Below are positions 8,929-55,064 of a DNA stretch of 64,000 bases, piece after piece (within the stretch, counting starts at the first letter, position 1; every line of letters starts with the position of its first letter). A program made the position numbers and the translations under genes. Origin of the DNA: Amphiscolops sp. MND2022 (Eukaryota). Under the pieces are notes generated by a model, which had not been told where the DNA came from, made no database searches, and saw only the letters and a program-made list of their open reading frames with translations. The stretch is taken from NCBI GenBank assembly GCA_964187785.1, contig OZ076409.1, positions 50,656,001 to 50,720,000 of the forward strand. Reading direction: 5' to 3'.

Positions 8929-9422
8929 GTAGCCTAAAGTGTCACACAAGGGTAATTTCTACTTTTTGCAACATCTTTCGAACAAAAATGTACTATTTCG
9001 GGTTATTGTGGTATTTTCAGTCATTAAAAACACTCAAAAAGGCACTGACATTACCATAATTCATGAAATTTCGTTTTGTGGGACATCAATTGAATAAATC
9101 AGGTCATATTTGTAAAAATACCGGATAGCGCTTCCCTTCTCCTCTCAGGATTCAATTGTTTTGCGAAATAGTTCTTTGAGAGTAGTTTTGTCCCAATTTG
9201 GATATAACCATTCTGTTGTTCATTCAAGGAACCCAATATTTTGATTCCAAATCTGTTCGAGAACTCTCAGTTGTTAGCATTTAAATTCTTATTTAAAATT
9301 AGTCTCCATCGTAAGCTGGGAAGCTGGCAAACTGAGAGACTCTTACCATGATATTCTGGCAAACTGCCTGTTTTAGTCTCTACTCATGCTTCTCTTGTTT
9401 TACTACTTTTCGGAACACAGCC

Positions 9423-9504
9423 AGCTGATTTTAGATCCCGAAAACGTCAGTTAGCATGCTACTGGTAGCATGCTCAATGAAGTTTTCTGGATCTAAAATC
9501 AGCT
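9423..9504. repeat. Imperfect palindrome / hairpin
   Basis: AGCTGATTTTAGATCC...AGCATGCTAC-TG-GTAGCATGCT...GGATCTAAAATCAGCT. Confidence 0.8.
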
Positions 9505-11764
9505 TGTTGACTTCCGACGTCACCATCAGACATCAGGTTTCAAAATCTTGCAAAATTTTTAGGATACTGCGAGAACTTAATTCACAATGAAAGATCCACG
9601 TACTTCAAGGTTCTTCCTAGAGTGTCAGCAAGTATATGAGAAAATAGAAATTGGGAAGCACCTAAACCAATTGGGGCCCATGGAAAAATTGTAGCACTCA
9701 TTTTACTTGTTCGCGATAATTTTTTTTGTCTCCCGAATTGATGAAATTCGCTACCTCTAAAAGGAATTGTTTGCAGGTACTCAAAAAAATTTGGTTAAGC
9801 TTTCCAATAAATTTTTCATTATCGCAATCTGCAAAATTGCAATTGCACAAATAGGAGAAACTGGCGAAAAATTTCGCAATTGTTTCTCCATCAACATACC
9901 TAACCGAAAAGGAGTGCTATAAATTTTTAACAGAAATTACATATTCAATTGGGATTACTTTATGATTTCACATGAAAATCTCCCGATTATAGGAAGCGAA
10001 TTTATGCTAGTTTGAATTCCATTCACGGAAAACTTTTCCTTTTGATGAAAATGTGGGAAAATACGTTCTTCTCAGTCTCATGGGAGAAGGTGGGATCCCC
10101 TGTTTGAATTGCTAGAACTTTTCGTACGTTCCTTAAAGGTTCCACCAGCTTTTAGTATCATTTTCTAAATTTCTTACGGAAACTTTCATGCAAACAGTTT
10201 TCTGTTCTGTTCGACTTTAAAGAAGCTGCTTGAAAGAAGCATCCTAAATTTGGCGGCACATTTAAGCCTTGAAGTTTTGCAAAATCCAATAAAAAGCGGT
10301 TCCATTTTTGAATGCATCTAAGATTCCATCATTTTCACCACTATTTTAATGCGAAATGACTTCATTCATAAAGTAAACAGCAAACAGCGTCATCTTGAGC
10401 AAGCTAATTGAGAAGCGGTAATCGCATCAGATGAAGTAGTTAAGAAATCAAAGCGGGAATACAACATGATTGTGGCCGTAACGAAGAGGGAAATATTTTC
10501 ATTTCACTTTGAATACTGGAAATTGCCGTGTAATTCTGTTCAAGATTTAACCTAAAGATTTAACACCAGAAGCTAACTGATTGTTTTAGATTCTATAGAA
10601 AATTACCCTGCATGCAGTCAGCAGCAAGTACAAAGCAAAGTTCTAAAGTTCTAGCAGTCTCGACTAGGGAAGATAATTACTATAAAAACAACTTTTTCAG
10701 ATACCAATAGTTTGTTCCAGTCGGAAAATTTTAGAGTAATCAATCATTTCTCACTACATTATTAGAAAAACACAATTCTATGTTGTTCGCAAAGGCAAAG
10801 GCTTGCGGTTTTTGGGGTGATGGAATGACAGTGAAAGTAATCAATTCTCCATTTGACTTTTCAATAATTAGCCCTTATTTTACTTTGATATCAAATTTTT
10901 TATTCCGAGAAAGTAACTAACTCTCACCAATAATATGTTAGGAGCAAGCTGCAAACAAATCTGATTTCAAACGTTAGATAGTTCACAAACACTGGATGCT
11001 GAATCTATAATGTGTCAATTCTTGTTCATTCTCACACGTTTTTCCTGACTTTAGACTTTAGTTGAAATTGCTCCAATACTTTGCATGAACTTTATTGTTG
11101 CCTACTACTTTTAGTAGGGTTTTCTTAAACTGTTTCGGAAAATTTTGGGTGAAAAAATGTCCCTGTTGTATTCAACTTTTACCAAGCTGTTTGAAAGAGT
11201 CATCTCTTTATCGCGCCAATTTTAAGCATTTGCAGTTTTGCAGGCTTCACTAAGAAACAGTTCTAATTTTAAATGCAACTGTTGTTACCCATTTTATCGC
11301 CATTTTAATTATTATCAGGCGCGTATCCCAAAAATATGCATGCAATGTTTTCGTGCCAATCCACAACTAGTCAGCTTTTTAAAATGCTTAGTCCACTTAG
11401 TTACCAGAAAGACAAAATTGAGACCAGATGCGATTGAAAAATTGAGTAAATCATCGTTATTGCAACCCAAATTGACAGAAGAGATGTCATAAATATAAAT
11501 TTCTATCTCGAGGTAAATTGATTTGAAGCAGAATTGAGCTTAGATAAAAGTTATGACAACCTTATTTTTTAGGCTGGGTAGGTATAAATAAACTGGGAAC
11601 GACATGAATTGGCCGTGCCCAAGGCTCAAAATTATCTAACAGGGATATGGTTTGAAGGGGGATGAACATATTATGGGGGGATGAAAATCATAACTTGTGG
11701 TTCGTTTTTTTCCAAATTCAGCCAAATCTCCACTTTATTACACCATTTAATAAGTAAATTCTAG

Positions 11765-13421: not shown

Positions 13422-14021
13422 TCAACAAAAGCACGTGTCATGAACGTTATGATTAGATATTCCACCCCTTTGGCGTACATCATGTCGTTCATTCCTGCAG
13501 TTAGTCCTAGCGTTCGAGTTGCGCTGTTCTTCGGCATCCGTTTCCGGTCTCTCAGCCGGGACTTCCCATCCTCTTCTAGTCTCATGGACCGATCCGGCCA
13601 TCATGGCGTTTTGAATTTGAGGCAACACTTGACTATTTATAGCCTCATTGATGGCCCTTTGGATCTGTGAACTAACATTATTAAGCATATCGTCCATCTC
13701 TCTCGAGATCCTAGAATTTAATTCGCTTGACAACCTGTTTATCTCTGCAAGTGAGTTTGCTTCAGCTGAGTTTTGGCCCAAGTCGGCGCTTGTCCTGGGT
13801 TCATTGTTCCTACAATTAGAATATAGGCTTTCGTCCTCATTCTCTTGGTTGTCGCTTACAACACTATTCCTCCTCCTAGCTGAATTACTATCTAAACTCC
13901 TTTCTCTTTCAATCCCGTTAAAGTGATTGTTTCCTAGCATTATATCTAGGTTTTCAATATCCGAAAGGATCTCTAATCCTCTAGACTTTCTAGTCTTCTT
14001 CTGCTTTCTCGTTGTAGGCAT
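13422..14021 (-). CDS. Copy of Gag N-terminal 195 aa carried in the 3' LTR, ending in flanking DNA
   Basis: Identical to residues 1-195 of ORF 26806..28515, followed by TCFC* from host flank. Expression unknown. Confidence 0.5.
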   Translation of the reverse strand: MPTTRKQKKTRKSRGLEILSDIENLDIMLGNNHFNGIERERSLDSNSARRRNSVVSDNQENEDESLYSNCRNNEPRTSADLGQNSAEANSLAEINRLSSELNSRISREMDDMLNNVSSQIQRAINEAINSQVLPQIQNAMMAGSVHETRRGWEVPAERPETDAEEQRNSNARTNCRNERHDVRQRGGISNHNVHDTCFC

Positions 14022-15360
14022 TGAGACTAAACCGGGTTGAAGAATTAAATTAATCAGGTCCGGAAAACAGTAATTGTTAACAGATTGTTATCAAGTTGAT
14101 TGTGAGGAGCTTTTCGAAATTGTGTCTACTCAAAGGAAGTAGCTCCTATATATACTCCCTTGGGTGGGAAAAGCATGGTAGTAACTTTAAAAAATGTCAT
14201 AACTACATTCCTAAAGCACCTGATCAGATCATATACATTCAAACATCAAAGTGCCGCTGAATTGTAGTAGCAAGGTCACGCGGCCGTTTAAATTCCTGCT
14301 TTGATAGGATTGAGAGGCATTCAAATAGCACGCGTTACTTCAAACAACATCTACTATAATATTTGCACTGCTGGTATTTGGGGAATGTCAGCTATCCCGT
14401 GCCGGCACGTGCCCCAGTAGTAAGCTAAACAAACTTACATCAAATAACGTTACATGCATAATACATCTACAAATTGCATGTGTTAATTGACAAATGAGAC
14501 CGGACTGGTCTTTCGGGCAAGTATTTGAAGCACCAACACACAACTGGTGTTAATCATATCAACCGATCTGGAGGACTACATAACTGTTTGTAACACACTC
14601 ATTACTGTACATGTCATTTAGAATGCACAAAACAATCATATTGACCATCTGAGTAATAAATTGAATGGGTGGCCTAAATCGGCCATTATCCGGATAGGTA
14701 TAGCATCAGGGGAGGGAAATTAGGCAAATGGCCTTATTTGGCTAAGCATCAGGGGAAATGAAACAAAACACTAATTATCCAACGTGATCATTTAACAAAC
14801 ACAGAAACGTAATTAAGCTACTTATTAATACAGTATAGCAGCGTCCACATCATTATCTTTTCATTAGCAACTTATGGCCGAAACCGGCCGTTTGACTCAA
14901 GTCCCGTTTAACAAAGGCGGAATTCAGTCATGTGGCCTTAACCGGCCATTAATTAAATACAGCACAAGTATTGTTCAAATGGATGAATGTGATTGGTTAG
15001 CACGACTGCAGTAAGTTATATCGCCGAGAAGGGACGTTTTCGCACTTGAACACGTTTCCTTCTCGCGATTAACTTGCTCTCTTATTGTTTGCTATAGCAT
15101 CAATACAACTTCGCAATTTAATTCAGCTATTACAACAACGAACTGATTTGGCTAATCCCAAATCGTAATATTAACAGACTAATTTGAACATCCAATATAA
15201 GTGATCAAATAAAATAAATACAAACAAAATACATGATGTAAACGGTTTCTAAAGTTTTAGCAGTTTTATTCTTAAAAAGTTGGCAGTGTTCCGGGTATGA
15301 CTTCTTGGTTGTTGCTTGTTGTCGTAATCATAGTGCCGTCACAGGCGGCAGCCTGCGACA
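13436..15360 (-). repeat. 3' LTR (1925 bp)
   Basis: Direct repeat of 27930..29854. No differences seen in spot checks, and ORF-track translations in the two copies match. Confidence 0.96.
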
Positions 15361-16057
15361 CTGCGGGTGTAAGGAAAAGAAACGAACCTGCATTCAACCC
15401 GTTTTCGTAGGCTTCCCTTCTCAGCTTTGTTATGAATTCTGGCTCATCTCTCGGTGTAGATCTGTCCATGTACCAATCCACTCGCTGTTTCTTGATCGCA
15501 TCTACTGAGCGGCCACAGACCATACATCCGGTATAACGTGTTTCGCTCACATTCTCGTACGGCTTCGTGTTTTGAATGTGATATGACGCCCTGAATGCAG
15601 AGTCAGCTACTACTAGCGGGGTATCCATAGACGGTCCTCTCTCGTGAGGGGGCGGTGATAGAGGTGACTCCACGACAGGAAGTAGAGTTTTGCAGAGCTC
15701 TATCCGAGATTTCCCTATCTTCCTCGGGGGAGCATAACACATTTCTCTATCAAAATATTTGTGATCCAACTTCGGGGTCACGCCCATCTGCGTCTGCCTG
15801 GAACTTGGGCCAGCTTCTGTATCTTCTTCTTCTTCTTCGGGTAATTCTACAGTCATAATGCGGCCCCCTATTAGCATGGGGCTGGATATTACCTCTTTCT
15901 CGATCCTGGCCACCAGTTGTTCCGTATCAGTGGAATAGTCGGTTTCCCAATCCGAGGCTTCGCTCTCACTACTAGATATGTAGATGACAGATTCGTTAGA
16001 TTCGTCAGAATCATAATCCATGTCGAATAATTTCCTTGCCAGGTTGTACTTGCTCAT
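15272..16057 (-). CDS. Accessory sense ORF of unknown function (261 aa) overlapping the 3' LTR
   Basis: ATG start, acidic/Ser-rich N-terminus, CMVC motif. Last 89 nt lie in the LTR. AATAAA directly after the stop (15265..15270). C-terminal peptide conserved in the diverged LTR at 63368. Confidence 0.75.
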   Translation of the reverse strand: MSKYNLARKLFDMDYDSDESNESVIYISSSESEASDWETDYSTDTEQLVARIEKEVISSPMLIGGRIMTVELPEEEEEDTEAGPSSRQTQMGVTPKLDHKYFDREMCYAPPRKIGKSRIELCKTLLPVVESPLSPPPHERGPSMDTPLVVADSAFRASYHIQNTKPYENVSETRYTGCMVCGRSVDAIKKQRVDWYMDRSTPRDEPEFITKLRREAYENGLNAGSFLFLTPAVSQAAACDGTMITTTSNNQEVIPGTLPTF

Positions 16058-17133
16058 AATGAGTTTTTTAGCTATTTTGAAGCTTGGGGAGGCAACTAGT
16101 CAGAATCAAAGCTTGAGAAAGAATGAATTCAACAAATTTGAGAATTTAGCCGACTCGGGCCTTTTCCCGACAATTCGTTTTTGGCGGTTGAATCTTCGGT
16201 AAATTACCCTAATCCGACATAAACATTCCTGAATGGAATTTCATAATTAGTCGGCCACCTTTGATATACCGATGTTTACCCGTCATCAACACCATCAGCT
16301 TAAGAGGTGTGAACGACGCTTGAGCTGCTAGCCTCAATTCTCTCCATCTCAAGTGGGTAATTAACGGGTCGCTTGAAGGCTATTAACGACACGCGCCGTT
16401 AAATTCTTTCAACATGGCTTCAGCCAATCAGAGTTAAGCTCTGATAAAATGAAAAATTAAGTAATAAAATGGCGAAAATAATAAATCAAAATAATTCAAA
16501 ATGGCGGAAATAACAATTTGAGTAACTATAATAACGGAAGTCCTAATTAGGCTAACAAACAAAACGGAACGAGGTAATACAGTGAAATGGGGTAAACGGC
16601 CGTAATTGGCCAATAATTCCATGAGTTGTAAATAATGAAATGATCTTAGTACATTTCGCTGGCAGACTCCATGTACAGAATAAATATGTAAATAATCCCA
16701 TAATATTAGTCTGGTAATAATCTTCAGCCACGAACTCCAATCCTTCAATTCTTTATTTTGAATTCCAATTCAATTCCTTTTATTTTAATTGCACTTTCTC
16801 TTCCATATTCATTCGATCGGTCTCCATCTACAAACTACCCTTTCTGTCTCTAATCTCTCCCGTCAGTCATCTCTTCCGAGTATCCCTGTTTCTCCCTTTA
16901 AGCTGGGTCCGGCCAATTTCCTTCGCGGCAGCAACCCGATTGGAACACTTCCCTTTTAGTCTCAGCTCAGAATGTCTTCAACTGAAGGTTGGTTTGTTTC
17001 TTTTTGAACTCAAATTTAACTTGATCAGGGCTAAATTCGTTCACAAAATGCTTCCTGTTTTCATCAATAAACGTGTGATAACACGTTTCGTTCAAATTTT
17101 CAAACACTTCCGGAAGTTTTCTAATGCGGTAAA

Positions 17134-20100
17134 ATGGATTTTTTCCAAGGAAGCTCACCGCCAAATTTCATCTCATTCTGTTTAGAAAACCAGAATAATG
17201 ACGAATCACAGATTCGAAACACCACTTCTTCAAACAATCTTGCCGAAGTTCCTCAACGCCCGCTCCCGATTACCATGCCAAGGCCTAGATCCGATCTAAT
17301 TGCTCCGTCTTCTCTACCTTCATCCAACATCCTTGCTATGTCAACAGCAGCGGTAACAGGAGGAGCCCAAGATACAGCCACTCCCTCTCCTTTCAGTGTC
17401 GACAGTGATTTTGATGTCACGGCGTACGCTGATGAGAAAGTTTTGCTTCTCGAACGGGCCCAGGGACAGGAAGAGAGACAAATTGCCAAAAGTTCTGAAC
17501 TCGGGGAACAGGAGGTTGAAGAGAGTGTCCCAGAAGGTTCACTCACGGTTGGGAACGAAATCCGATCTTCTACCTTGCCCTTCCAAACAAGCACTCCAAC
17601 CAAAGATTTGCCCAGTGAGTCTGCAAGGCTGGATTTATCGCAACTAGAAGCCGGTCTCACAGTTGCTCCATCTACCCAGACGGAATTGCCAGAATTGTTG
17701 ACAACTCGCGGAAATACTACCAACATGTCAGCAGCATCATTCCTCCACCATGAGACTGACGAAAGTTCGTCTATATGTGATGCCCCCAAATTGCCGACTG
17801 GAGTCGCGGACATAGTATATTTAGACGACATAACAGGGACTGAGGAAGCTGGTGACACATCCAGTCAGGCAAGTGGACCAGCTCTATACAGTTTCCAACC
17901 AGTGGGAGGCGCAGCAGAAACTGCAGGGGAGTCATCAGTTGACACTCCTATTCCTCATCCGGATAACTTGCGTCCGTCAACATCAACGTCTGCAGAGCAA
18001 GGTTCTGGCATCAGGGAGCTCTCTGGTCGCAGCCGGGCTATTTTAAAACAATACTTCGATCAGGATGCTACTACCATCAACTTCCCCCTTGGCCATAGAA
18101 CGGTGGCTTTCACTGAGCCGCAAGTGTACCATCTTTTGAGGGTCCTTACAGATGAAACCTTGAAGATGTCTTTCACTGCCATGGAACAGATGGTGATCGG
18201 GGCAGTTCGTGGAGCGCCGGTTACTTCCAGTTCTCGAACTGGTCATTTCCGAAACAGGCCAAGAGCCCAAACTCCCGGACCTGGACTTCATAGTGATTCC
18301 GAGGGCAGTTCGCATTCTGAAAATTTCCCTGAGTCAGGAACTGATACGTCTGCCGGGTCAAGTTCGGAACAAGAAGATAGAGGACTGGACTCTTCCAACA
18401 ACACTGATAGCTCTGGGGAGATGGCTCTAATTTCACAGGCTTTTAAGGAGCCTTTCAGACCTGCTTCAACTTCCTGTGGGACTACTCAAGATGATCCCCC
18501 TCAAGCAGGTTTCGAATCAGCAGATCAGTCTAGTCTTGATGCTACCCTTTCCGAGTTACGAACTCAAACTTCTCCTGCTCCGCCCTTAGCTTCGAGTTCG
18601 GGTAAAGCGCCAAAACGTAAGCAACGGAAACAGACTCGAGGTGTCCCTATGAAAGAGGAGTTCTTCTCTAAAATCGGATGGACACGCTCGTTCATTTCTG
18701 GACCAGCAGACCCGCTCCATAATCCTTATATGGTATGGTGCCATATATGTAAAAAGAATCTTTCTGTGAAGACGAAGGGCACTTTGGAAATTCTGCGGCA
18801 CCACAGGACGGAGAAGCACCCCCGAAAAGATCAAAGATGGCGTTACGAGCACCTCAAGAGTGTTCACCCCGTGTCCGGAAAGGTGCAACATCGAGTGAGA
18901 GGCCGCAATGGGAAGATTCTCTCAGAGATTGAGTTGGCCAAGGAGATGCGCCACTTTATGCACGTTGAGTTGGTGGACATCGGAGAACGTTTCCCTTTCT
19001 ATGACGATTTCATAAAAGGAACAACCACCACACTCGTCACCCCTGAATCAAGAGCTAAGACACAGATCCAACTTATTGGGAACTTCATACAGCAGCACGG
19101 GGATATTGGAATGCTCCGCAAATTGTGGTCCCAAATAGGCTCTTTGACTAACTATCAGTCCAGCTACTGTGACTTCGATTGGGGTGAAGAAAGAATTTCG
19201 GTAAGTTCTCTATTGGGTTTGTACACTGCTTGTGGTAGGCCAAAACCTTCCAAACATTTCGTAATTCTCCTTTTCCTTTTCAGGCCATCTTCCAGCACAT
19301 CTTCAATTGTGCAATGAACGATTTAGCAAACCAGATTGCTACCACACAGCACTTTGCCATCGAATTTGAGGATCAGGGTGTGAACAGACTCATGTCTGTC
19401 AAATTCTGGAAAGACAACACCCTCTGCCGAGTCTACGTGTGTCGAAGTGGGCTTCCTTCCTCTGACCTTACTGGAGAGTTGGGGTCCCTCTCTCGACTCC
19501 TCTCAGTAGTATCCACTAAAGCCGATATAGTCGCCTGTTCCGGATGTCCTGTCGAGCTGATTCAGACTATCGACAACAATGTTTTCTTCCCCCGGGCTGT
19601 CCAGAGTTGCTTTCGCTTCGAGCATCTGCAGCTCCAGAAGATGATGCACAAGCCCACTTTCAGTGTGTTTGGCAGAATAGACTTCTTCTCTGTTCTGAAG
19701 TGCCTCGTAGTTTCACTTGGAGCAGCTTCCAGTGAGGATTGGGCCCTGCAATCCCCTGAACTGGCACGAGTTAGTATATTAAGTTCAAACATGAAGCGTA
19801 AAGGGTTAGGGGGTAGGTTCGGGCAAAAGACAATTCGGGTTCATTTAGGCTATCGATACCTGCAAACTGGACTTGCCGAGTTTACCCAACCTCTGTCGGG
19901 AACTTGTAAAACATTGGAAGGCGATCCGGCAGTACCTGACGTCCCATACTCCACACCAGGGAATGCAGGGGGTCCACAATCAAGTGCAGAGCTTCGAGTG
20001 GTCTCTCATCTGCGACTCCTTCTTCACCGTCAAGTTGGAGTTCTTCCAACGCATAATCAGTGATTGTGAGTATACCGCTACATATCCATATTGGTACTAT

Positions 20101-21378
20101 AAGACATTATCAGAATGATCCTTGATCCTTGATTCCTCGGGCCACTAGCGCAGTAGGCATATCGGTATGGGTTTATGTAGACGTTTTGTTCTTTTCATGG
20201 TCTTGTCCTTTGTATTTCCAGATGTCGCCAGTTTCGTTGTCAATCTGTTGGGCCGACGAGATGCAACATTTTTCCTCTGTGGAGAAGTCTGCCGATTCAT
20301 CTCCAAGTTATGTGCCAGATGTTACTTGCCGGAAACCATCCCTCTCGAGAATTCGTGGTTCCTGCTCCTCAATTTCAACGTGAGCGACGGGAAGTTCATC
20401 AGCGAGGAGGAGTTCCTTGTCCGACACCGGCTGACAACTCGGATAGCTACTGCCAGCAAACAGTGTGCCGATGTTGTCCATTTGAACAAGAAATCGGAGA
20501 AAGCCGCCATTGAGAAGACAGCTGCAGAGACAACCAGCAGTTTCGTCAAAGAAGGACTGCAGTTTATTCAGTACTTGGTCAAGCAGGTCCTCAACCAAGC
20601 CGGTCTGAGCTCCGAGGTGATCAAGGGGTTGGCCGCCTTTGATCCTTCCGTCCTCTTCAAGAGGCCGAGTGAGGTCGGACTTCGTCATTTCGAGGTATTG
20701 TACTCGACCTTCCAGCTTCGCTCCTGGGTCTCCGGTGAGAATGAGAACATCTGTCGAGATGAGTATTTGGCTTTGTTAGATCACCTGCGAGTCAATTATC
20801 CTCCAGATTTCGATTTCAATGAAAATTCCCCCGACCTGATAGACTTTCTGATGCAACTCGAGTTTTTTCAAACTCATGAGCACATTTTCCATCTTTTCAA
20901 GCTGTGCTGCTTGTGTTTGACAGAACGAAGTCTCCAATATCCCCCAGTATCTTTCGGGAGTGTTAACACTTCTGGACACCGAGGCCGTTTTGCTGACCTT
21001 ATAGAGCCCTGTCAGAGTTACCTTTCTTGCGTGCCTGACTCCATTCTACATTGTTGTTCTGACGCTAATTTAGAAAAGCTTTCAGCCCTCAGTTCTTCCT
21101 TCGAGCGTTCCGCTTTCTCCCCCGACTATGATCCATGGACCTTTGTGGATGAGTTCGGGAGGTCCAAAATTTACAAGAGCCTTCTTGCCTCCTATAAGGT
21201 CGTCACTGCTGTTTCTCCCCCTCGGGCTGTTCATCTGGCGACAGGAATTGCCTCCTCCGTGCCGGACGATTCTGCCGTAAAGGTGCCCTCCAAGAAGCAA
21301 AGGAAGCGAGCAGGTAGCAGCAGTTCTACAATTTCGTCCACTTCCAAGAAGGCTGTTCAAGGGTCCTCTAAAGACTAA
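17134..21378 (+). CDS. Antisense four-exon accessory gene (~1308 aa): disordered N-terminus, BED/hAT-type zinc finger, decayed hAT-transposase-like region
   Basis: Exons 17134..19200, 19284..19769, 19849..20065, 20222..21378. Introns GTAAGT..TTTTCAG, GTTAGT..CATTTAG and GTGAGT..TTTCCAG (phases 0, 0, 1) join four ORFs into one 3927-nt frame. Motif VWCHICKKNLSVKTKGTLEILRHHRTEKH. Confidence 0.85.
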
Positions 21379-21610
21379 ATGTACATATGTATTTATGTAC
21401 TTTCAGACTGTAAACTTTGTTCATTTCTCTGTTTCATATTTATTTTCATTTTGTTCTCTGTTGTCTTGATTTTCTGATCCCGTATTTATTTCCTTGTAAG
21501 GGATCATTCAAATGTCCCATTATTTATTCAAGAAATACTGCTGCATGGGACCGAAAAGATAAAAAGAATGAAAAGAAGAGAATTCCCATTTTCGGGAAGA
21601 AATTCAATTC

Positions 21611-24600
21611 TTAGTATCTGAAGTCTTCTGAGTAGTTTGGATTTGGATTAGGCCTGAGATTATATTTCCCTCCTCTAGGGCTCAGACTTTCATTTCTAGC
21701 ATCTTTTTCAGATATTTCGGGCACGATAATATAATCCCCTCTTTTCGGAGAATTTTGTGCATCGTTGTCATTCGATGAATTTCTTTCTGGAGAATTTTCA
21801 TTCCCGTTTGGTCCATTTGCCATATCCGGCAAAGATTTTTCTTGGGTTTTTGGGGAAACGGCCGGATTCGGCCAATCAAATTCTTCGTTTCTAATAGCTC
21901 CAGTAGCTTCATTTCTTTTAGTGACGTCATCATTTAAGCGGTCATTCCGGCTGTGTGCCGTATTGTCATTATTCGTTTCTCGCGTGATTATATAATCCGC
22001 GTCACTCTCGTTTGCGTCATTGTTGATTTGTTCCGTACTCGGCTGTTCGCCGTTCGGTGAGTTGGCCGGAATAGGCTCGCTGCCTCGTGTGTCTATCTGT
22101 TCACCAAAGTTTGTTTCCCACGTTATTACATACAAGTCGTCTTGCGGAATGATTATTTCGTCATCCGGCTGTAGACGCTGTTCTCGGAAATTGTCCTCAA
22201 GTGGCTGATTTGGAACAAACTTTTTGAGACGAATTCGATGCAATATCTGCGTTTTATTTGTATTAAGCCTGCGGACAATGTAATTCTCGTTAGGTAAGGT
22301 CTTCTGGACTATAAATGGTCCAACCCAACGATAATCTTTGAATGGAATTTTTGATCCTTGATGATCCGCTTTCGGCTGTAATACAAAACAGTAATCGCCC
22401 TCTTTGAGTGGGGCGGCTTTTGCTTTTCGGTCATAATACTCCTTATATTTGATATATGACTGCATGATGTTCTGCTTAGTTTTGTCAATAAGGAGTTTTG
22501 TCCGGTTTTGGATTTCTTCTGCGAATTCAGTAGTCGGATGGATTTGCTCGTTTGGATTTGTTCCAAGCTTATGATCCAAGATGTTGTATGGGATTCTTCC
22601 ATGGAACACTCTTGTCGGTTCACATCCGATACTGGCATGGTAACTAGTATTGTGATTCAGAACTGCTAATGGCAAATATTTGTGCCATTGTCGGCGATAT
22701 TCTCCACATGCCATTTTCAAGTTTGTTTTCAATGAGGCATGTGTGCGCTCCAATTTCCCGATAGTTTGCGGGTGCTTTGTCGTTGCACATTTTAGGGTGA
22801 TTCCTAAAATTTGGGTAATTTCTGCAATAATCGTGGAAGTGAAGGCAGTTCCTTTGTCTGTAATGAGCGTTGTCGGTAAGTAGGAATGTTTGGTCATAAT
22901 GTCAATGAGTGCTTTGGCTACATTGATCGCTGATGCGTCCGTGAGAGGGTAAGCGAATAAATATCTAGAGAAAACATCAATTGCCGTTAGGACATTTTCA
23001 TACCCTCCGCTTGGGGGAAGATTCGGCAATAGGTCAATTTGCATGGCGTCTTCAGGTCCAAGGTCCCATTCGGGCAAATTTAGTAGTTCAGGCGTGATCG
23101 TTGCATTAGGGACTCTTTTGTCTCTGGCGCATTGCTCACACCCTTCTACCCACTTTTTGACATGTTTTGCCATGTTGGGATAATAATACCTTTGTCTGAT
23201 TTCCTGCAACATTTTTGAAATCCCGGGATGTTTATGCGCTGTCCCGTGAAGGGAGTGGAGCAGTTCCCGAAGTAGGTGTTGCGGGAGCAAAATTTGATGG
23301 TATTTAACATTCCCTGTTTCATCAAAATATTGCCGTGTTAGGATTTCGTCCTTTAGTACAATTCGTTCCAGATTATTTGCATAGTGTCTATATCGAGCGT
23401 CCTGTTGCAGTATGTTTTCTGAGTAGTCTTCGTGAAGGAGTTTTGCCTTCAATTGTTGTAATACTGCATCCTTGGATTGCTCGATAATTATCTGGTTTGT
23501 TTTCCTCAATCGGTCTTGTATTTCAGGTTGTTGTTTGGTTAAGTTGGTGGAAAGAGTTTGTATTGTAACTGTAGGGTCTTCGATTACAGGATTGTTCCTG
23601 ATTGCTTCTTTCCTCGCCCAATATTGTTCTTCGGTCTCGTCGTCGTCATTGGTGTAGAAGATTTGTTCTTCCTGTGAGACTCCTGCTGATTGGACGTTTA
23701 TTTCTATTGGTAGCGTTTGTACATCTTCTCGGATTTTCATTACTAATTTGTCCTTTGGGTCTGCTTCCAGTCGGGACAAGTAATCCGCTGCCGTATTCTG
23801 TGCTCCTGGGATGTGTGCAATGACAAAATTGAACTGAATTACATAGTCGCATGCGTTCCACAGAGCTGGGGGTACGATTTTCGTCTGAAAGAATCTCGTT
23901 ACGGCTTTGTTGTCGGTTAGAATTATGACCGGTTTCGGTGCTCCCCAAAAAATATGCCCAAATTCTTTGAATGCGAAATAAATCGCACGAAATTCTTTTG
24001 CATAAATTGACATTTTTATCTGGGCTGGGGTGAAGGTTTTTGAACCATAAGCGACCGGTGCATATGATTTGCGGATTGACGTGAATTTCTGACTCGGATC
24101 ATCTTCAATGAGTACTGCGTATCCTGCAGCTCCAAAGCTTGCATCTGTCATGAGTGCAATCTGCTTGTTGGGAATGGGTTGTTGTAAGGCTAAGTCGCAA
24201 CATTTGTCCAGAGCTCGGTTGATTTCCTCAAATTGCTGTACCAATTCTTTTGATACTAGGACTTTTTCGTCACTTTTCAGCATCTTGTAGAATGGGGCAA
24301 GGCGTTCGGACAGTCTTGGAACGTAGTTTCGGTAGTAGTTCAGGAAACCCAAATATCTTTGCAATGCCTTTTTCGACTTTGGAAATTTGGTTTTTTCTAG
24401 AAAATTCTGAACGTTCTGTCGTTGAGGTTTGACGCCTTGTGGAGTAATCGTTCGTCCAAGGAAATCAATTTCACGGGCACCAAAATGACACTTGTGCATC
24501 GTCAATTTAAGGCCTGCTTTCTGAATGCATTTGAAAGTTGCTCTTAGGTTAGCAATGAGATGGTCGGCGTCGTTGGCGGCGATGCCGATATCGTCCACAT

Positions 24601-26815
24601 ACTGGGCGCACTGATCCGCTTTGATGACTTTGTCGAGGTATTCCCTCATGAAACTCGAGAATGCGGATAGTGACCGGCTAAGGCCTTGTGCCAAGCGTCT
24701 GTAGGCGAATGTGCGACTGGCAAAATTGAAAGCCAACATTTCGATTGAGCGTTGGTCGGCCATTGGTAGGCAGTGGTATGCCTGCGAACAGTCTAATTTG
24801 CAGAACAGTTTTTTGCCTGCCAGGTGTTGGGCAGCATCAACTAGTGTGCTGACAGGATGATTATTGTTTATATAATCATCAGAAATCAGGTTGTTGATTT
24901 TTCTCAGGTCGACTAAAAGTCGCAGTTTCCCATTTGGTTTCTTTTGGGCGAATATTGGGCTTGCATACTTTGAGAACGGTAGAGTGGTGATGATGCCATA
25001 TTTGTGTAACATGGCTAATTCGACGAGGATGTCCTCCTTTAGATTGATAGGAGCTGGGAGACTTTGACTATAGGCTGGGGAATCGTCCTTAGGCGTCAGT
25101 TTCACCTTAAATTCCTCATTCATGCCTATATCGAATCGGTGTCTTGCGAAGATATCGTGGAATTCCACTAACAGTTCCTCTATTTTCTCCTTCTCTTCAG
25201 GAGTAAGGGTGGAATCTTTCCAATCGAAGTTTTCCAAGAATTTTGCACGTGATTCTTCATCTTTGGTGGGGTCGAGTGTCTCCAGTTCCTGTAAGGCCTG
25301 TAATTCTCGGAGGATTCGTTTCTGTATCGGTGTGTGTTCCTCAGGGTTTCCAGGATTTTCTGGAGTTGGGAACCAATAGTTTTCAGAATCTTGTAGATTT
25401 TTGTTGGTCTTGATGAGACTGCTGACGTAATGGGCCGCCTGCTCTTGGTCGTTTTGCAAAAGATGCCAGGTTGATGCCGGGTCTACCGGTTTAACATGTT
25501 TCATTTGTTCTGGCGTCATGACTGAGAAATTGGCAATATGGAGTCCCTTTTTGAGTTTGTAAGGGTGGTCTGTGAAATTGTTCACTGGTATCAATATATT
25601 GCCCTCATTCAGAGTGACCAAAGCTGGGCAAAATGTGATGTCGCCTTCTTCGTGTAGGAGGTCGCTCGGTTGCAAGATTCCGGTGACAGCATTCTCAGGG
25701 TACAACAGGGAATTGGTCCTAATTAGGACTTTATCATTTGGCGGAATGGTTATCTCGGTAGGGTTGAGAATTGGTTCTAACACGTTTGAGTATTTGTGAT
25801 CAGCTGTTTTGAGCTGCATTGAGAAGAACGGGAAATTCAGTATGCCTTGTCTCATGTCCAGAACTGTGTGGTTTCGTTGAAGGAACATTAGGCCGATAAT
25901 CGGACCTGTCAGGTGTTCCATGACTATAAAAATCTCATGAAACTCAATGTCGCCAACTTCAAATTTAAGTTCTATTGTGCTTTTGGGCGTTTCCAGTTGC
26001 CCATTAGCGACCATGATTTGGAAATTCGGAGGCGGACCTTCCCGGATAACAGATTGTGGAGATAAGAGTCGAATTTTCCGGAGGTCCATTTCTGGAATTG
26101 CACTGGACAATGCTCCAGTGTCAATGAGTCCATCTATGGTCAGCTCCCCAAAGTCCATGGGGAAGTACAACATGCGCTTCTTGCATTTGAGATTGATGTT
26201 GGTCGACAAGGGTATACAGTCTGGTTCACCGTCTCTGGTGATTAGGACGTTCTGGAATTGCTTCTCGTCTAATAGTGATTGTGGTGTAGGTTCGGAGTTG
26301 TCCTCATGGGCCTCGGTCCCCAATGGGTTCGGGAACACTGGGTGGTTCGTACCATCATTCATCTGCCAGTTTTCAACTAGTGCTCTGGTCTTTTTATTGT
26401 GGGTAATTGGAGGGTTCTCATGGACTGTTCTATTGTAGTGCTCGATGTCATCTAGGACATATTGGAATTGTAGTAGTTCCTGGTTGTAGATCTCTGTGTC
26501 CCAATAGGGATCTCTGCCGTAATCTGGATCTATGTAGGTAGGATTGTAATTGTCAACCAGGGGAATGGGCCTGAATCGGCTATTGAAAGCAGATGTATAG
26601 TCAGGGTCCCATACAGGAATTGGTTTTTGGAACAAATGAGTGTTATTGTATGTAATGATGGTAGCTTTTTCCATTTGTTGCTGCCAGACAACAGAGGGAT
26701 AGCCCATCAATTGTTGATTGTATTGGTGGAAAGTTTGCGTTGGAGGGTCCGATCTGATGTATTGTCGGACAGATATCAGTTCGTTGTATTGGAGTCGTGG
26801 CGAAGTTAGTTTTTT
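21611..26815 (-). CDS. pol: Pol polyprotein: protease, dUTPase-like segment, RT, RNase H, integrase
   Basis: LIDTGA (protease); QYVDD (RT); TDAS..E..TDN..ADYLSR (RNase H); H-H-CEQC zinc finger; IDL / TDKG / LER (DDE); VGPF motif. Frame is open up to 26818 and overlaps the end of gag in the -1 frame. Confidence 0.96.
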   Translation of the reverse strand, partial: KKLTSPRLQYNELISVRQYIRSDPPTQTFHQYNQQLMGYPSVVWQQQMEKATIITYNNTHLFQKPIPVWDPDYTSAFNSRFRPIPLVDNYNPTYIDPDYGRDPYWDTEIYNQELLQFQYVLDDIEHYNRTVHENPPITHNKKTRALVENWQMNDGTNHPVFPNPLGTEAHEDNSEPTPQSLLDEKQFQNVLITRDGEPDCIPLSTNINLKCKKRMLYFPMDFGELTIDGLIDTGALSSAIPEMDLRKIRLLSPQSVIREGPPPNFQIMVANGQLETPKSTIELKFEVGDIEFHEIFIVMEHLTGPIIGLMFLQRNHTVLDMRQGILNFPFFSMQLKTADHKYSNVLEPILNPTEITIPPNDKVLIRTNSLLYPENAVTGILQPSDLLHEEGDITFCPALVTLNEGNILIPVNNFTDHPYKLKKGLHIANFSVMTPEQMKHVKPVDPASTWHLLQNDQEQAAHYVSSLIKTNKNLQDSENYWFPTPENPGNPEEHTPIQKRILRELQALQELETLDPTKDEESRAKFLENFDWKDSTLTPEEKEKIEELLVEFHDIFARHRFDIGMNEEFKVKLTPKDDSPAYSQSLPAPINLKEDILVELAMLHKYGIITTLPFSKYASPIFAQKKPNGKLRLLVDLRKINNLISDDYINNNHPVSTLVDAAQHLAGKKLFCKLDCSQAYHCLPMADQRSIEMLAFNFASRTFAYRRLAQGLSRSLSAFSSFMREYLDKVIKADQCAQYVDDIGIAANDADHLIANLRATFKCIQKAGLKLTMHKCHFGAREIDFLGRTITPQGVKPQRQNVQNFLEKTKFPKSKKALQRYLGFLNYYRNYVPRLSERLAPFYKMLKSDEKVLVSKELVQQFEEINRALDKCCDLALQQPIPNKQIALMTDASFGAAGYAVLIEDDPSQKFTSIRKSYAPVAYGSKTFTPAQIKMSIYAKEFRAIYFAFKEFGHIFWGAPKPVIILTDNKAVTRFFQTKIVPPALWNACDYVIQFNFVIAHIPGAQNTAADYLSRLEADPKDKLVMKIREDVQTLPIEINVQSAGVSQEEQIFYTNDDDETEEQYWARKEAIRNNPVIEDPTVTIQTLSTNLTKQQPEIQDRLRKTNQIIIEQSKDAVLQQLKAKLLHEDYSENILQQDARYRHYANNLERIVLKDEILTRQYFDETGNVKYHQILLPQHLLRELLHSLHGTAHKHPGISKMLQEIRQRYYYPNMAKHVKKWVEGCEQCARDKRVPNATITPELLNLPEWDLGPEDAMQIDLLPNLPPSGGYENVLTAIDVFSRYLFAYPLTDASAINVAKALIDIMTKHSYLPTTLITDKGTAFTSTIIAEITQILGITLKCATTKHPQTIGKLERTHASLKTNLKMACGEYRRQWHKYLPLAVLNHNTSYHASIGCEPTRVFHGRIPYNILDHKLGTNPNEQIHPTTEFAEEIQNRTKLLIDKTKQNIMQSYIKYKEYYDRKAKAAPLKEGDYCFVLQPKADHQGSKIPFKDYRWVGPFIVQKTLPNENYIVRRLNTNKTQILHRIRLKKFVPNQPLEDNFREQRLQPDDEIIIPQDDLYVITWETNFGEQIDTRGSEPIPANSPNGEQPSTEQINNDANESDADYIITRETNNDNTAHSRNDRLNDDVTKRNEATGAIRNEEFDWPNPAVSPKTQEKSLPDMANGPNGNENSPERNSSNDNDAQNSPKRGDYIIVPEISEKDARNESLSPRGGKYNLRPNPNPNYSEDFRY

Positions 26816-28515
26816 GACTCATCGTTGGAAGATGAGGCCTGTGAGTTGGAAGATGTTGACTTATGTTGTGGTTTCTGCGCTTTTGAATTGGGTTTTCCGT
26901 CATTAGCGTCGTCTGGTCTGGTGCGTTTGGGTTTGAGATGCGCACCAGCGCCTTGCCAGCATCTTTCTTCCGGGTGGTTCTTTTTACCACAAGTGCCACA
27001 CTCCGGATACGTCTTTTTCTGAGTCTGTTTGCCTTGTTGGGCATCTTTTTCCTTTTTCTTCTTCAACTTTTCGCAGTCCTTGACCATATGGCCCTTTTCC
27101 TTGCAATAGTTGCAGGTTATATCTGACATTTGCCCAGTAGTTAGAGGAGTCTTGGATTTTGTCGAGGAGGTCATTGTGGCCATTGGTAGGTCGTCTGATT
27201 CCTCTAGTGCATTGAGTTCTAATTCTCTCTCCAAATGAGCAACTATTTCGTCATAAGAGCCATTTTCGAGTCTGGCCATGTTGACAGACCGCTTCAGTTT
27301 TGGTGGCAGCTTTGCGTAGAGCAAGCTGTCAATCATTTTCTGGGCGTGATCCCCAAATGCTTTTTCTGCCCCTTGATTTAGTTCTTCAAGGAAATCTGGT
27401 AATTTCATCGTATTGGGATCAAAGACCAGGCGGTGCCATTTATGCTTGGCAGTCGCCTGTGATTCGGGCTTGACGTATTTTCGTCTGAAGATGATTAATA
27501 CGTCTTCTAAAGTTTGTCTGTTGCTGGAGCTGATGTTTCTGAAGGTTTGAAGAGCATTCTTTCTCAATAAAGAGTGGAAGTGATTGATCTTCATTTGCTC
27601 AGTCATCTCTGGCTGCATCTTGATCATCGTATGGAACAGGTCCTCAAACAGCTCGAATTTTTCACTCTTGCCATCAAAAGTCATTGTGTTTGAGTTGACC
27701 GGGCGTATAGTGAGTTGTTGGGCTGTCGGCCTATTCTGCATCGTTGTCAAGACGTCTGCCAATCGAGTAATAGGGTCGGTTTGGGCAGCCGGAGCATTTC
27801 TCTCTTGCGCTGGGATCGTCGTGTCAAGGTTGATGTCCTCATAGGACCTGTCGAGATGGTTTCTGGATGAGACTCGTCCCGTGAGAAACTCGGGAACTTG
27901 AGGTGGAGATTCGTTGTCTCCTGTCACCATGTCATGAACGTTATGATTAGATATTCCACCCCTTTGGCGTACATCATGTCGTTCATTCCTGCAGTTAGTC
28001 CTAGCGTTCGAGTTGCGCTGTTCTTCGGCATCCGTTTCCGGTCTCTCAGCCGGGACTTCCCATCCTCTTCTAGTCTCATGGACCGATCCGGCCATCATGG
28101 CGTTTTGAATTTGAGGCAACACTTGACTATTTATAGCCTCATTGATGGCCCTTTGGATCTGTGAACTAACATTATTAAGCATATCGTCCATCTCTCTCGA
28201 GATCCTAGAATTTAATTCGCTTGACAACCTGTTTATCTCTGCAAGTGAGTTTGCTTCAGCTGAGTTTTGGCCCAAGTCGGCGCTTGTCCTGGGTTCATTG
28301 TTCCTACAATTAGAATATAGGCTTTCGTCCTCATTCTCTTGGTTGTCGCTTACAACACTATTCCTCCTCCTAGCTGAATTACTATCTAAACTCCTTTCTC
28401 TTTCAATCCCGTTAAAGTGATTGTTTCCTAGCATTATATCTAGGTTTTCAATATCCGAAAGGATCTCTAATCCTCTAGACTTTCTAGTCTTCTTCTGCTT
28501 TCTCGTTGTAGGCAT
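26806..28515 (-). CDS. gag: Gag (569 aa) with two CCHC zinc knuckles, starting inside the 5' LTR
   Basis: CNYCKEKGHMVKDC and CGTCGKKNHPEERC. Capsid-like FDGKSEKFELFEDLF region. Confidence 0.93.
   Translation of the reverse strand: MPTTRKQKKTRKSRGLEILSDIENLDIMLGNNHFNGIERERSLDSNSARRRNSVVSDNQENEDESLYSNCRNNEPRTSADLGQNSAEANSLAEINRLSSELNSRISREMDDMLNNVSSQIQRAINEAINSQVLPQIQNAMMAGSVHETRRGWEVPAERPETDAEEQRNSNARTNCRNERHDVRQRGGISNHNVHDMVTGDNESPPQVPEFLTGRVSSRNHLDRSYEDINLDTTIPAQERNAPAAQTDPITRLADVLTTMQNRPTAQQLTIRPVNSNTMTFDGKSEKFELFEDLFHTMIKMQPEMTEQMKINHFHSLLRKNALQTFRNISSSNRQTLEDVLIIFRRKYVKPESQATAKHKWHRLVFDPNTMKLPDFLEELNQGAEKAFGDHAQKMIDSLLYAKLPPKLKRSVNMARLENGSYDEIVAHLERELELNALEESDDLPMATMTSSTKSKTPLTTGQMSDITCNYCKEKGHMVKDCEKLKKKKEKDAQQGKQTQKKTYPECGTCGKKNHPEERCWQGAGAHLKPKRTRPDDANDGKPNSKAQKPQHKSTSSNSQASSSNDESKN
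26809..26815 (-). promoter_or_regulatory. -1 ribosomal frameshift slippery heptamer A_AAA_AAC
   Basis: Minus strand reads TCA AAA AAC TAA at the gag stop. The pol frame GTC AAA AAA CTA is -1 relative to gag. Confidence 0.85.
27912..27929 (-). promoter_or_regulatory. Primer-binding site, tRNA identity uncertain
   Basis: TGGTGACAGGAGACAACG directly after the LTR-terminal CA. Confidence 0.7.
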
Positions 28516-29854
28516 TGAGACTAAACCGGGTTGAAGAATTAAATTAATCAGGTCCGGAAAACAGTAATTGTTAACAGATTGTTATCAAGTTGATTGTGAG
28601 GAGCTTTTCGAAATTGTGTCTACTCAAAGGAAGTAGCTCCTATATATACTCCCTTGGGTGGGAAAAGCATGGTAGTAACTTTAAAAAATGTCATAACTAC
28701 ATTCCTAAAGCACCTGATCAGATCATATACATTCAAACATCAAAGTGCCGCTGAATTGTAGTAGCAAGGTCACGCGGCCGTTTAAATTCCTGCTTTGATA
28801 GGATTGAGAGGCATTCAAATAGCACGCGTTACTTCAAACAACATCTACTATAATATTTGCACTGCTGGTATTTGGGGAATGTCAGCTATCCCGTGCCGGC
28901 ACGTGCCCCAGTAGTAAGCTAAACAAACTTACATCAAATAACGTTACATGCATAATACATCTACAAATTGCATGTGTTAATTGACAAATGAGACCGGACT
29001 GGTCTTTCGGGCAAGTATTTGAAGCACCAACACACAACTGGTGTTAATCATATCAACCGATCTGGAGGACTACATAACTGTTTGTAACACACTCATTACT
29101 GTACATGTCATTTAGAATGCACAAAACAATCATATTGACCATCTGAGTAATAAATTGAATGGGTGGCCTAAATCGGCCATTATCCGGATAGGTATAGCAT
29201 CAGGGGAGGGAAATTAGGCAAATGGCCTTATTTGGCTAAGCATCAGGGGAAATGAAACAAAACACTAATTATCCAACGTGATCATTTAACAAACACAGAA
29301 ACGTAATTAAGCTACTTATTAATACAGTATAGCAGCGTCCACATCATTATCTTTTCATTAGCAACTTATGGCCGAAACCGGCCGTTTGACTCAAGTCCCG
29401 TTTAACAAAGGCGGAATTCAGTCATGTGGCCTTAACCGGCCATTAATTAAATACAGCACAAGTATTGTTCAAATGGATGAATGTGATTGGTTAGCACGAC
29501 TGCAGTAAGTTATATCGCCGAGAAGGGACGTTTTCGCACTTGAACACGTTTCCTTCTCGCGATTAACTTGCTCTCTTATTGTTTGCTATAGCATCAATAC
29601 AACTTCGCAATTTAATTCAGCTATTACAACAACGAACTGATTTGGCTAATCCCAAATCGTAATATTAACAGACTAATTTGAACATCCAATATAAGTGATC
29701 AAATAAAATAAATACAAACAAAATACATGATGTAAACGGTTTCTAAAGTTTTAGCAGTTTTATTCTTAAAAAGTTGGCAGTGTTCCGGGTATGACTTCTT
29801 GGTTGTTGCTTGTTGTCGTAATCATAGTGCCGTCACAGGCGGCAGCCTGCGACA
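27930..29854 (-). repeat. 5' LTR (1925 bp)
   Basis: Minus strand reads TGTCGCAGG...CATGACA and is followed by the PBS. Confidence 0.96.
28641..28648 (-). promoter_or_regulatory. Putative LTR TATA box
   Basis: GGGAG-TATATATA-GGAG about 125 nt upstream of the gag ATG. Confidence 0.5.
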
Positions 29855-30915
29855 GCACGGTACATCCGAATTTTGGACGTTGACTCCGAAGTGATTTGCA
29901 TTATACTACGGAAGAAGCTGCAGCTTCTTGCTGACGATCGAAATTATTCACGACGATCGAAATTATTACGACGATCGAAATTATTACGACACATACGAAT
30001 TTCGTCATTATATCCGAAGTAAAATTCGGATTTTATTTATGTCTGCAAATTGGGGGAGACCAAATGGTCCCCACTTTAAGATTTTTCCTCAGTATGCGAC
30101 GTTTTTCAAACGATTATTTAATCAAAGTGCCCCTTTTGATTTTTAGGAGGAATAAAGCATTATGTGAGAATAGAGGGCCACGTTCGGTTTTTTCGGCACA
30201 ATGAGACTAACCGAAGATCTAAAAAAAGTTGGTGGAAAAATTTTCCCAATTTCTGGTTTTTGAGTAAAACACTTTCGAAGTTCAAAGAGCGGCTTCATTG
30301 ATTAGTTTCCGGTCCTGTGGAACGGACGAAAGTTTTCGGAGAAATTGTGGAAATGATTTACGGTATTTTACGGCTCTGTGAGATTTTCCTTCAAAATATA
30401 TTCATTCGGTCGAAGTTAAATGTTTTCGGCTCGAAAAAAAAAACGTTTTGCGAGCTTGAAGTTCCAAATTTGGCACAATAAGATTTTTTTCTAGGAAAAA
30501 ACGTTCCGAAAAAAATAAGTACCAGAAAAAGTTTTTTTTTGTTGTTTCCATTGGAGAAAAAGTAAAGTGGTTTTCGAGTTTTATGCGTATTCCTTCGGGT
30601 ATTTTACGGCACTGAGAAAGTGATAAACTTATAACAATGGTGTCCTTTGCATTTTTAAGAAACTTGGTTTTTGGAATTTTGAGCGGGGCCCGGCTTCTTT
30701 GTTCAAATCGCAACAGAGGAATTGTATTAAATGCAATTAGCTGAAAGTCTTATCCATGAGCAAGTCCCATGGTCATTGAACAAGACGAGATGAAATACTG
30801 AACTTCGGGACGTGATAATTTGGTCGGTAGCGTGAACGCCAGTGGTATAATGGGTATGCTGATCGAGGCCCAACTGGCCACTGTTTTTGCTTGTTTTCAT
30901 TCACATTCAAGTATT

Positions 30916-31080
30916 TATTCTTTAGATTGATAGTTGGGCATTTCCACATTTTCATCAACTTTTGCATTTAAACCATTTTCGATGCATTTCACAATTATAT
31001 ATTTTCACAATCATTTGAAATGGTTCAAATGCAAAAATTGATGAAAACGTGGAAATGCCCAACAATCAATCTAAAGAATA
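30916..31080. repeat. Fold-back element, ~60-bp inverted arms
   Basis: TATTCTTTAGATTGATAGTTGGGCATTTCCAC... / ...GTGGAAATGCCCAACAATCAATCTAAAGAATA. Confidence 0.8.
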
Positions 31081-31264
31081 TATTCCTTATTCTAATATAT
31101 TCCTTATTCAGAACGATTATCGTCCAGTGAATTCTCATTTTTGTTCATTTGATTTGTATACTACATGATCACAAAGTAATTCAAGTTTTCAAATCAAATC
31201 ATTCACATTTGTTAGTTTTTCCTCTGAAACTCTTGGCAAGATTGCAACATTTTAAAAAAAAACA

Positions 31265-55013: not shown

Positions 55014-55028
55014 TGGCGCAGTCAGCCA
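55014..55028 (+). promoter_or_regulatory. Primer-binding site, probably tRNA-Ser
   Basis: TGGCGCAGTCAGCC directly after the 5' LTR. Confidence 0.7.
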
Positions 55029-55064
55029 ATTTTTAACAAAAAATTACAACGAACTTCCAACAAG

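Follow-up and report, generated by a model that had tools for sequence, protein, structure and literature searches.

What an antisense open reading frame (ORF) does for a long terminal repeat (LTR) retrotransposon has long been an open question, and a locus of Amphiscolops sp. MND2022, an animal with a 1.07-Gb genome, raises it again. The window analysed here is a 64,000-nt stretch of contig OZ076409.1 (50,656,001 to 50,720,000; coordinates below are positions in it). It contains a Gypsy element of about 16.4 kb, at 13436-29854 on the minus strand, which carries gag, pol, a third gene in the same sense (orf3) and, on the opposite strand, a long spliced gene. We propose, tentatively and at a little under an even chance, that a whole clade of animal LTR elements has domesticated a hAT transposase as a spliced antisense gene whose sequence-specific product regulates the element itself or counters its silencing, and that this gene has co-evolved with palindromic operators of the LTR and internal promoter and been passed between elements as a cassette.

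The plus-strand unit (17134-21378) proved to be a single gene with four exons, three GT-AG introns and 1308 stop-free codons:
17134..19200, plus strand: exon 1 (689 codons), with a long acidic low-complexity N-terminus, a basic stretch, a BED-like finger and a conserved region behind the finger
about 18679-18819, plus strand: the BED-like finger of exon 1 (W, CxxC, H, H)
19201..19283, plus strand: intron 1 (83 nt, GT-AG)
19284..19769, plus strand: exon 2 (162 codons), for which an RNase-H-like fold is predicted, the top structural matches being the Hermes hAT transposase
19770..19848, plus strand: intron 2 (79 nt, GT-AG)
19849..20065, plus strand: exon 3 (217 nt), interrupted by an additional intron in 23/39 copies, not in the window
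20066..20221, plus strand: intron 3 (156 nt, GT-AG)
20222..21378, plus strand: exon 4 (385 codons including the stop), helical, resembling the hAT C-terminal dimerisation region, with a basic tail

The original prediction, made from this sequence by eye, had seen two non-env genes arranged head-to-head. Both are real and lack an env signature, but the plus-strand unit is a four-exon spliced gene and not one ORF. Neither product has an env-type Pfam match or a 19-residue segment above 1.54 on the Kyte-Doolittle scale (the orf3 maximum is 1.17). Among 39 main-clade copies the GT-AG borders are retained in 38/39 (intron 1), 36/39 (intron 2) and 38/39 (intron 3), while intron bodies have fallen to 25-60% identity and their lengths shift by non-multiples of three. 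Introns 1 and 2 have the same borders in the divergent groups where anchors located them, and in 24/39 copies the spliced frame reaches at least 1230 aa. A possible upstream exon at 17049-17129 was discarded, as its ATG and frame are unconserved, versus retention of the ATG at 17134 in 16/16 copies.

The ratio of non-synonymous to synonymous substitution rates (dN/dS) is 0.01-0.24 for the antisense gene in most measurable pairs and in all exons. Ratios of 0.33-0.71 come from a few closely related pairs that differ little, and comparisons between subfamilies are saturated in dS. For orf3 the pairwise ratio is 0.07-0.11. These values indicate that both extra genes are under purifying selection and support the accessory genes of the original prediction as genuine. 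The fourth intron (window 19983/19984) is precisely missing from 16/39 copies, that of the window included. Such precise loss would require recombination with a cDNA of the spliced antisense message, which hints indirectly at expression and splicing of the gene.

The distribution of this arrangement was examined in copies from the whole genome. With the BED piece as query, 7316 first-look candidates came up, of which the best 150 were scored (all at least 81% identical, 16 other copies at 99%); the reverse transcriptase (RT) as query gave 21306, the best 150 scored being all at least 98% identical. The clade thus numbers at least hundreds of copies, probably thousands. In twenty copies picked across identity bands from the 150 BED-piece hits, the plus-strand gene, orf3, gag and pol are all present and follow one order (20/20); the two LTRs of a copy are 95.5-100% identical, and the 5-bp duplications are clear in most. 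Another 18, an unbiased sample chosen from the 150 RT hits outside the cargo list and fetched on the cargo side only in 16 cases, all have orf3 and the plus-strand gene (18/18); that gene is 45-68% identical, and pol is 93-94% identical in the two taken whole. The lineage is therefore multi-copy, and its cargo is not the one-off nested insertion that the original prediction had named as its refutation.

The same genes are found far outside the main clade. In eight divergent copies (pol 66-70% identical, exon 4 28-37%) the full gene order is present in 7/8, the remaining one being interrupted upstream; four further divergent copies have the LTR-gag part, orf3 and the antisense gene (4/4), one of them without pol in the next 10 kb. 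Trees of RT, integrase (INT), exon 2 and exon 4 (18-19 copies) recover the same three groups, subject to long-branch warnings, and because they agree the capture of the antisense gene is old and single. Within the main group, comparison of the copies indicates that the gene is swapped as a cassette. A profile search with exon 4 over 1.84 billion representatives returned 644 relatives, and the ten clusters examined are ENA records. Two divergent exon 4 relatives match this genome at 97-100%. For four others it contains nothing closely similar, so that the gene probably resides in at least one other genome. A word-based search for longer exon 4 relatives found none, and none of 178 pattern matches in a metagenome scan was confirmed.

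Some elements are mosaic (L051/L052 versus L053/L054; L056, L059, L064, L066, L069), with orf3, LTR and antisense cassette reassorting independently around near-identical pol. Hits spaced by 14.1 kb (G000 C5:3368637, 3382739, 3396841) and 14.5 kb (G000 C12:14840119, 14854585, 14869050) fit tandem elements with common LTRs.

The antisense protein probably descends from a hAT transposase. Three independent weak signals (the BED-like finger, the exon 2 fold and the exon 4 C-terminus) point to this origin, and the BED, RNase-H-like and dimerisation-like signals stand in hAT domain order. In the finger, W11, C31, C34 and H51 are invariant and H57 is present in at least 90% of 22 copies; its Atlas neighbours, taken as a lead only, are CGGBP1-like and zf-BED (0.86-0.88), and Pfam zf-BED itself does not match the region. 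Exon 2 is modelled as helix, three strands, helix, strand, helix, with a mean predicted local distance difference test (pLDDT) of 44. With this pLDDT-44 model, Hermes occupies ranks 1-4 of 350,542 chains in Foldseek (prob 0.87-0.96, E 0.03-0.07), and VIA gives Hermes Z 5.8 over 104 residues. The Atlas features of exon 4 liken it to Dimer_Tnp_hAT clusters (0.93-0.94), 9/10 of the best family hits sharing one clan. Several conventional hAT transposases occur in this genome (L083-L091, open frames up to about 700 codons), none of them detectably the donor.

Catalysis has probably been lost, to judge from a predicted register against the DDE residues. In that register strand 4 ends in S/T-G in 44/44 sequences, where hATs place the second aspartate. 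No CxxH was seen in the antisense protein and no ERxFS-type motif in exon 4. As regards terminal inverted repeats (TIRs), the flanks of the gene share no inverted match of at least 11 bp. A two-copy complex prediction of the BED region scored 0.00, the fold being uncertain.

The candidate targets of this protein are palindromes in the two putative promoters of the element:
14671..14684, with others at 14876 and 14934: GGCC-N6-GGCC palindromes in U3 of the 3' LTR, from the motif search
29165, 29370, 29428: the same three sites in U3 of the 5' LTR
16058..17133: divergent internal promoter region (1.08 kb), between the head-to-head orf3 and antisense gene
16598-16611: internal GGCC-N6-GGCC palindrome, about halfway from one start codon (541 nt) to the other (536 nt)
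16466 and 16498: YY1-like motifs, internal promoter region
17106-17117: ETS-like 12-bp palindrome, internal promoter region

GGCC-N6-GGCC occurs four times in the non-coding parts of the window, where 0.01 are expected. The U3 sites sit 520-780 nt upstream of a TATA-like box at LTR position 1207 (about 28640-28648 in the 5' LTR). All 39 main-clade copies have 2-5 such palindromes in U3 and the internal region, and they are kept even though the LTRs of different subfamilies are about 60-65% identical. The spacing is fixed: across these copies a spacer of 6 gives 149 hits versus 0-11 for other spacers, with 30 different spacer sequences, and the background contains one hit in 118 kb. The YY1-like motifs are kept in 39/39 copies (0.04 expected in shuffles) and the ETS-like palindrome in 32/39 (0.0005 expected); this conservation is in line with a predicted bidirectional promoter.

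The motif changes with the group. GGCC-N6-GGCC is absent from the U3 and internal regions of 11/11 divergent copies, which instead have GGAC-N5-GTCC (49 hits in the 11 copies), discovered on seven of them and then confirmed on the four others; a looser form of this type occurs 6-10 times per divergent copy against a background of 0.085 per kb. Between the two groups with the GGAC motif the BED core is 68-73% identical, versus 47-58% to the main group, whereas the corresponding values for the C-terminal halves of orf3 are 34-38% and 24-36%. The motif switch follows the BED finger better than orf3, which favours the BED protein as the predicted reader.

In the mechanism that we propose, the LTR promoter would drive gag-pol and genomic RNA, and the internal divergent promoter would drive orf3 and the spliced antisense mRNA. 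A hAT-type transposase would have dropped its cutting chemistry and retained the BED finger and an oligomerisation scaffold. The antisense protein would bind the fixed-spacing palindromes in U3 and the internal promoter, sustain transcription of the element by transactivation or anti-silencing, and feed back on its own internal promoter, an action comparable to that of foamy-virus Tas and of VANC and TnpA of plant DNA transposons. Whether a domesticated class II transposase has become the sequence-specific regulator of the retroelement itself we judge to be evenly balanced. The analysis shows the structure of the antisense gene, the selection on it, its presence throughout the clade, its divergence in step with pol, and the palindromes with their change between groups; the loss of catalysis, expression, binding and activating effect that the proposal entails are steps that we infer.

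Several results pull the other way. The correlation between motif and BED finger comprises three lineages and could be explained by shared ancestry, since the RT tree also separates both GGAC groups from the main one. In two main-group copies, antisense cassettes 55-67% identical lie inside elements otherwise 90-100% identical, and the motif is unchanged. As to hAT descent, VIA ranks retroviral integrases (Z 6.0-6.6) and actin-like folds above or level with Hermes, and the exon 2 and exon 4 models are of low confidence (mean pLDDT 44-45). The fold search with the exon 4 model gave no useful match, and PF05699 is unmatched in Pfam. The antisense protein has no Pfam family at threshold and nothing significant in a PDB sequence search; against nine hAT ORFs of the same genome, hmmsearch and hhalign scored it like reversed controls, save for a spurious 12-column hit. 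Finally, a strand 1 glutamate is invariant (43/44) and a second one is present in 38/44, so the protein may have some metal-binding role.

The alternative that survives best, although we consider it unlikely, is that orf3 recognises the palindromes, whether in DNA or in the form of short hairpins of the genomic RNA, and that the transposase-like protein is its partner or has another job. The orf3 gene is equally universal and selected, shares its promoter region with the antisense gene, and encodes an acidic part resembling an activation domain; its place at the U3 border is that of the foamy-virus bel or lentiviral nef genes, and GGCC-N6-GGCC might form a stem of 4-5 bp. Against this, orf3 differs as much between groups with the same motif as between groups with different motifs, unlike the BED core. 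It also matches no DNA-binding family: a Pfam scan gave no hit at threshold, the best being zf-C2H2_12 (E 0.14, 2/13 sequences).

A shade less likely still, host transcription factors would read the palindromes and the antisense protein would act post-transcriptionally, for instance in tethering of the pre-integration complex to chromatin, nuclear import or protection of cDNA ends. Its basic stretches may be localisation signals, such roles have been proposed for plant antisense ORFs in the available text of PMC7264820, and the remaining conserved promoter motifs resemble host-factor sites. A fixed host factor would not account for a palindrome that is so rare in the background and switches wholesale by group, and the target-site duplications display no evident preference by eye.

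It is improbable that the antisense protein is still active as a nuclease or transposase, through an active site that has changed, and takes part in cDNA end processing, second-strand priming or copy excision. Selection along the full transposase length, beyond the BED part, and the invariant strand 1 glutamate would fit such activity, as would the missing purine tract of the main clade (see below). Yet no acidic residue ends strand 4, the 5-bp duplications and TG...CA ends are typical of integrase, no TIR of at least 11 bp surrounds the gene, and a short purine tract is present in four divergent copies that also bear the gene. A one-off or hitch-hiking DNA-transposon insertion without function for the retroelement, for which a class II origin and the 15/39 copies with a broken or unresolved spliced frame might speak, is refuted by selection and distribution, the gene being present in every RT-selected copy and in three deeply diverged groups, with low dN at saturated dS, splice sites kept in diverged introns and no inverted repeats.

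Regulation by the domesticated transposase would operate within an otherwise intact Gypsy element, whose remaining features are as follows:
13431..13435: target-site duplication GCACG, left copy
13436..15360, minus strand: 3' LTR (1925 bp, TG...CA), from the LTR comparison
15272..16057, minus strand: orf3 (261 aa, in gag-pol sense), with an acidic N-terminus, a conserved H and a CxxC, and lacking a transmembrane segment
15361..15384, minus strand: position of the polypurine tract, pyrimidine-rich and orf3-coding, with no canonical tract
21611..26818, minus strand: pol, with protease, RT, RNase H, H2C2 finger, integrase core and integrase C-terminal domain
26806..28515, minus strand: gag (frame 26806-28581, ATG at 28515), reading through the primer-binding site and containing a CCHC knuckle
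26809..26815, minus strand: A-AAA-AAC heptamer, candidate -1 frameshift site just ahead of the gag stop
27918..27929, minus strand: predicted primer-binding site, starting with TGG and abutting the 5' LTR, its core of 9-12 nt being the same in divergent families
27930..29854, minus strand: 5' LTR (1925 bp, TG...CA), from the LTR comparison
29855..29859: target-site duplication GCACG, right copy

The two LTRs are identical at 1925/1925 positions and directly flanked by GCACG, just as first read from the sequence. This identity, the 16 other copies at 99% in the BED piece and the range of the 20 other LTR pairs bear out a very recent insertion in an active lineage. Both LTR/internal junctions are protein-coding, another early reading that held, because the final 89 nt of orf3 belong to the 3' LTR and gag begins at LTR position 1340 in the 5' LTR. 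Within the 3' LTR lie the last 29 orf3 codons, the palindromes of U3 and a duplicate of gag codons 1-195. Ty1 is a precedent for a gag that begins inside the LTR, in comparison with which 195 codons is long.

Both gag and pol are uninterrupted, as described at the outset. The pol frame is open over 1735 codons from stop to stop and lies in the -1 frame relative to gag, which it overlaps by 13 nt; the heptamer is presumably of the -1 frameshift type. The Pfam matches of pol follow the Gypsy order PR-RT-RH-INT (PF13975, PF00078, PF17917/17919, PF17921, PF00665 and, weakly, PF22938), with no match to the Pao peptidase A17, and gag matches DUF1759 alone, below threshold. Among the 120 pol relatives listed, identity is 69-98% except for one row at 49%, and none bears a clade name. 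Two related pols (P0202, P0215; 86% identical over RT-RH) have a precomputed dUTPase domain, PF00692.

A pyrimidine-rich stretch stands in place of the polypurine tract before the 3' LTR in 30/30 scored copies of the very active main clade, and a purine run of 7 nt occupies this position in four divergent copies. The missing tract is an oddity that leaves the element in Ty3/Gypsy (Metaviridae). TG...CA LTR ends and target duplications of 5 bp, within the 4-6 bp of that family, are present in the window element and the fetched copies. The LTR start, a short hairpin-like stretch, is near-invariant in all groups. Just past the pol stop (21379-21610), 1-4 AATAAA signals in gag-pol sense occur in 39/39 main-clade and 5/8 divergent copies, in AT-rich sequence; the gag-pol mRNA may end there, ahead of the antisense gene. 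An AATAAA directly after the orf3 stop was not taken as the basis of a polyadenylation model, because this signal is limited to the subfamily of the window and one sister subfamily.

The window also contains a second, unrelated Gypsy element (54999-60272, minus strand) with a single gag-pol frame of 1757 codons, 24% identical to the pol described here, and with no GGCC-N6-GGCC site. About 70 tandem copies of a 22-bp unit lie at about 51650-53500 and are related to 8882-8928 on the opposite strand. Tc1/mariner-like transposase remnants, judged by eye from translations, are found at 51-602 and 46480-48461, and long imperfect hairpins, possibly small non-autonomous elements, at 9410-9517, 30913-31083, 40709-40848 and 42440-42662.

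The lineage had been called possibly undescribed. In the available portions of the literature (including PMC8220671), no LTR retrotransposon is described whose antisense gene is spliced and derived from a hAT; this statement covers literature, and Repbase, Dfam or GyDB may have a catalogue entry for the family. Plant Gypsy elements are already known to contain antisense ORFs, and rotifer and planarian elements to contain extra ORFs other than env. The spliced, transposase-like nature of the antisense gene goes beyond the original prediction, as do the promoter palindromes, which are new here; if binding is demonstrated, the principle itself may also be new.

The plant Retand/Tat elements (Grande, RIRE2, Retand) are likewise Gypsy elements, with a region of 3-6.5 kb between pol and the 3' LTR that holds antisense ORFs; the antisense gene of Grande is driven by a promoter of its own and its product is nuclear, and the TRP28 domain is predicted to bind DNA (PMC11963269 and PMC7264820, available text). 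They differ in being confined to plants and in their TRP28/Transposase_28 and SMC-like domains, unmatched in this element, whose proteins give no match to TRP28 (PF04195) at E up to 1. In the portions available, the Retand paper does not contain the word 'intron', the review states that plant antisense ORFs resemble no other transposable elements, and no matching cis motif is described. Among animals, planarian Burro, rotifer Juno/Vesta and Oikopleura Tor are Gypsy elements with extra ORFs; non-env accessory genes (DEDDy, GDSL; PMC5408684), giant multi-domain elements (PMC6431247) and a third gene driven by an internal promoter (PMC4402516) are on record among them. Unlike the present element, none of Juno/Vesta, Burro and Tor has an antisense, opposite-strand spliced or transposase-derived gene described in the available texts, and Tor and Burro have env.

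With hAT transposases such as Hermes and the domesticated CGGBP1, ZBED and GTF2IRD2, the antisense protein shares a BED-like finger and, by prediction, an RNase-H-like core and a C-terminal helical region in the same order, and hAT-derived CGGBPs favour CGG/CGC motifs (PMC8097297, available text). It differs by a low-complexity N-terminal extension of about 500 aa, apparent loss of catalytic residues and absence of TIRs, by a host that is a retrotransposon and not a cellular genome, and by lacking detectable sequence similarity to the sampled hATs of this genome. The anti-silencing systems VANC/VANDAL and TnpA/Spm are encoded by the elements themselves; VANC/VANDAL likewise combine an element-encoded protein with family-specific repeated non-coding motifs, and VANC proteins evolve alongside their targets (PMC5735166, available text); binding in our case is a prediction. 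TnpA of Spm derives from a transposase, and transposases and their catalytically dead derivatives act as sequence-specific regulators (bioRxiv 10.64898/2026.08.24.746577, available text). Both systems are plant DNA transposons, unlike ours, and 'LTR' and 'retrotransposon' do not occur in the available text of that preprint. Transposase domestication, known from hosts and lately from plant DNA transposons, would here have been achieved by a retrotransposon, seemingly across classes, and would provide an animal case of element-encoded sequence-specific self-activation or counter-silencing.

The closest parallels in organisation are the complex retroviruses, which are generally known for 3' accessory genes, an internal promoter, a U3-overlapping gene and an antisense gene, all of which have a counterpart here. 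Foamy-virus Tas is a transactivator with an internal promoter, and HBZ of HTLV-1 is an antisense spliced gene. The present element differs from them in having no env, a Gypsy-type pol and unrelated accessory proteins. The role of antisense ORFs in LTR elements now has a testable case, with three natural pairs of protein and motif, and self-regulation may explain the expansion of the clade in this genome. If our proposal is true, a retroelement has attained self-regulation in the style of a complex retrovirus through the captured enzyme of another transposon.

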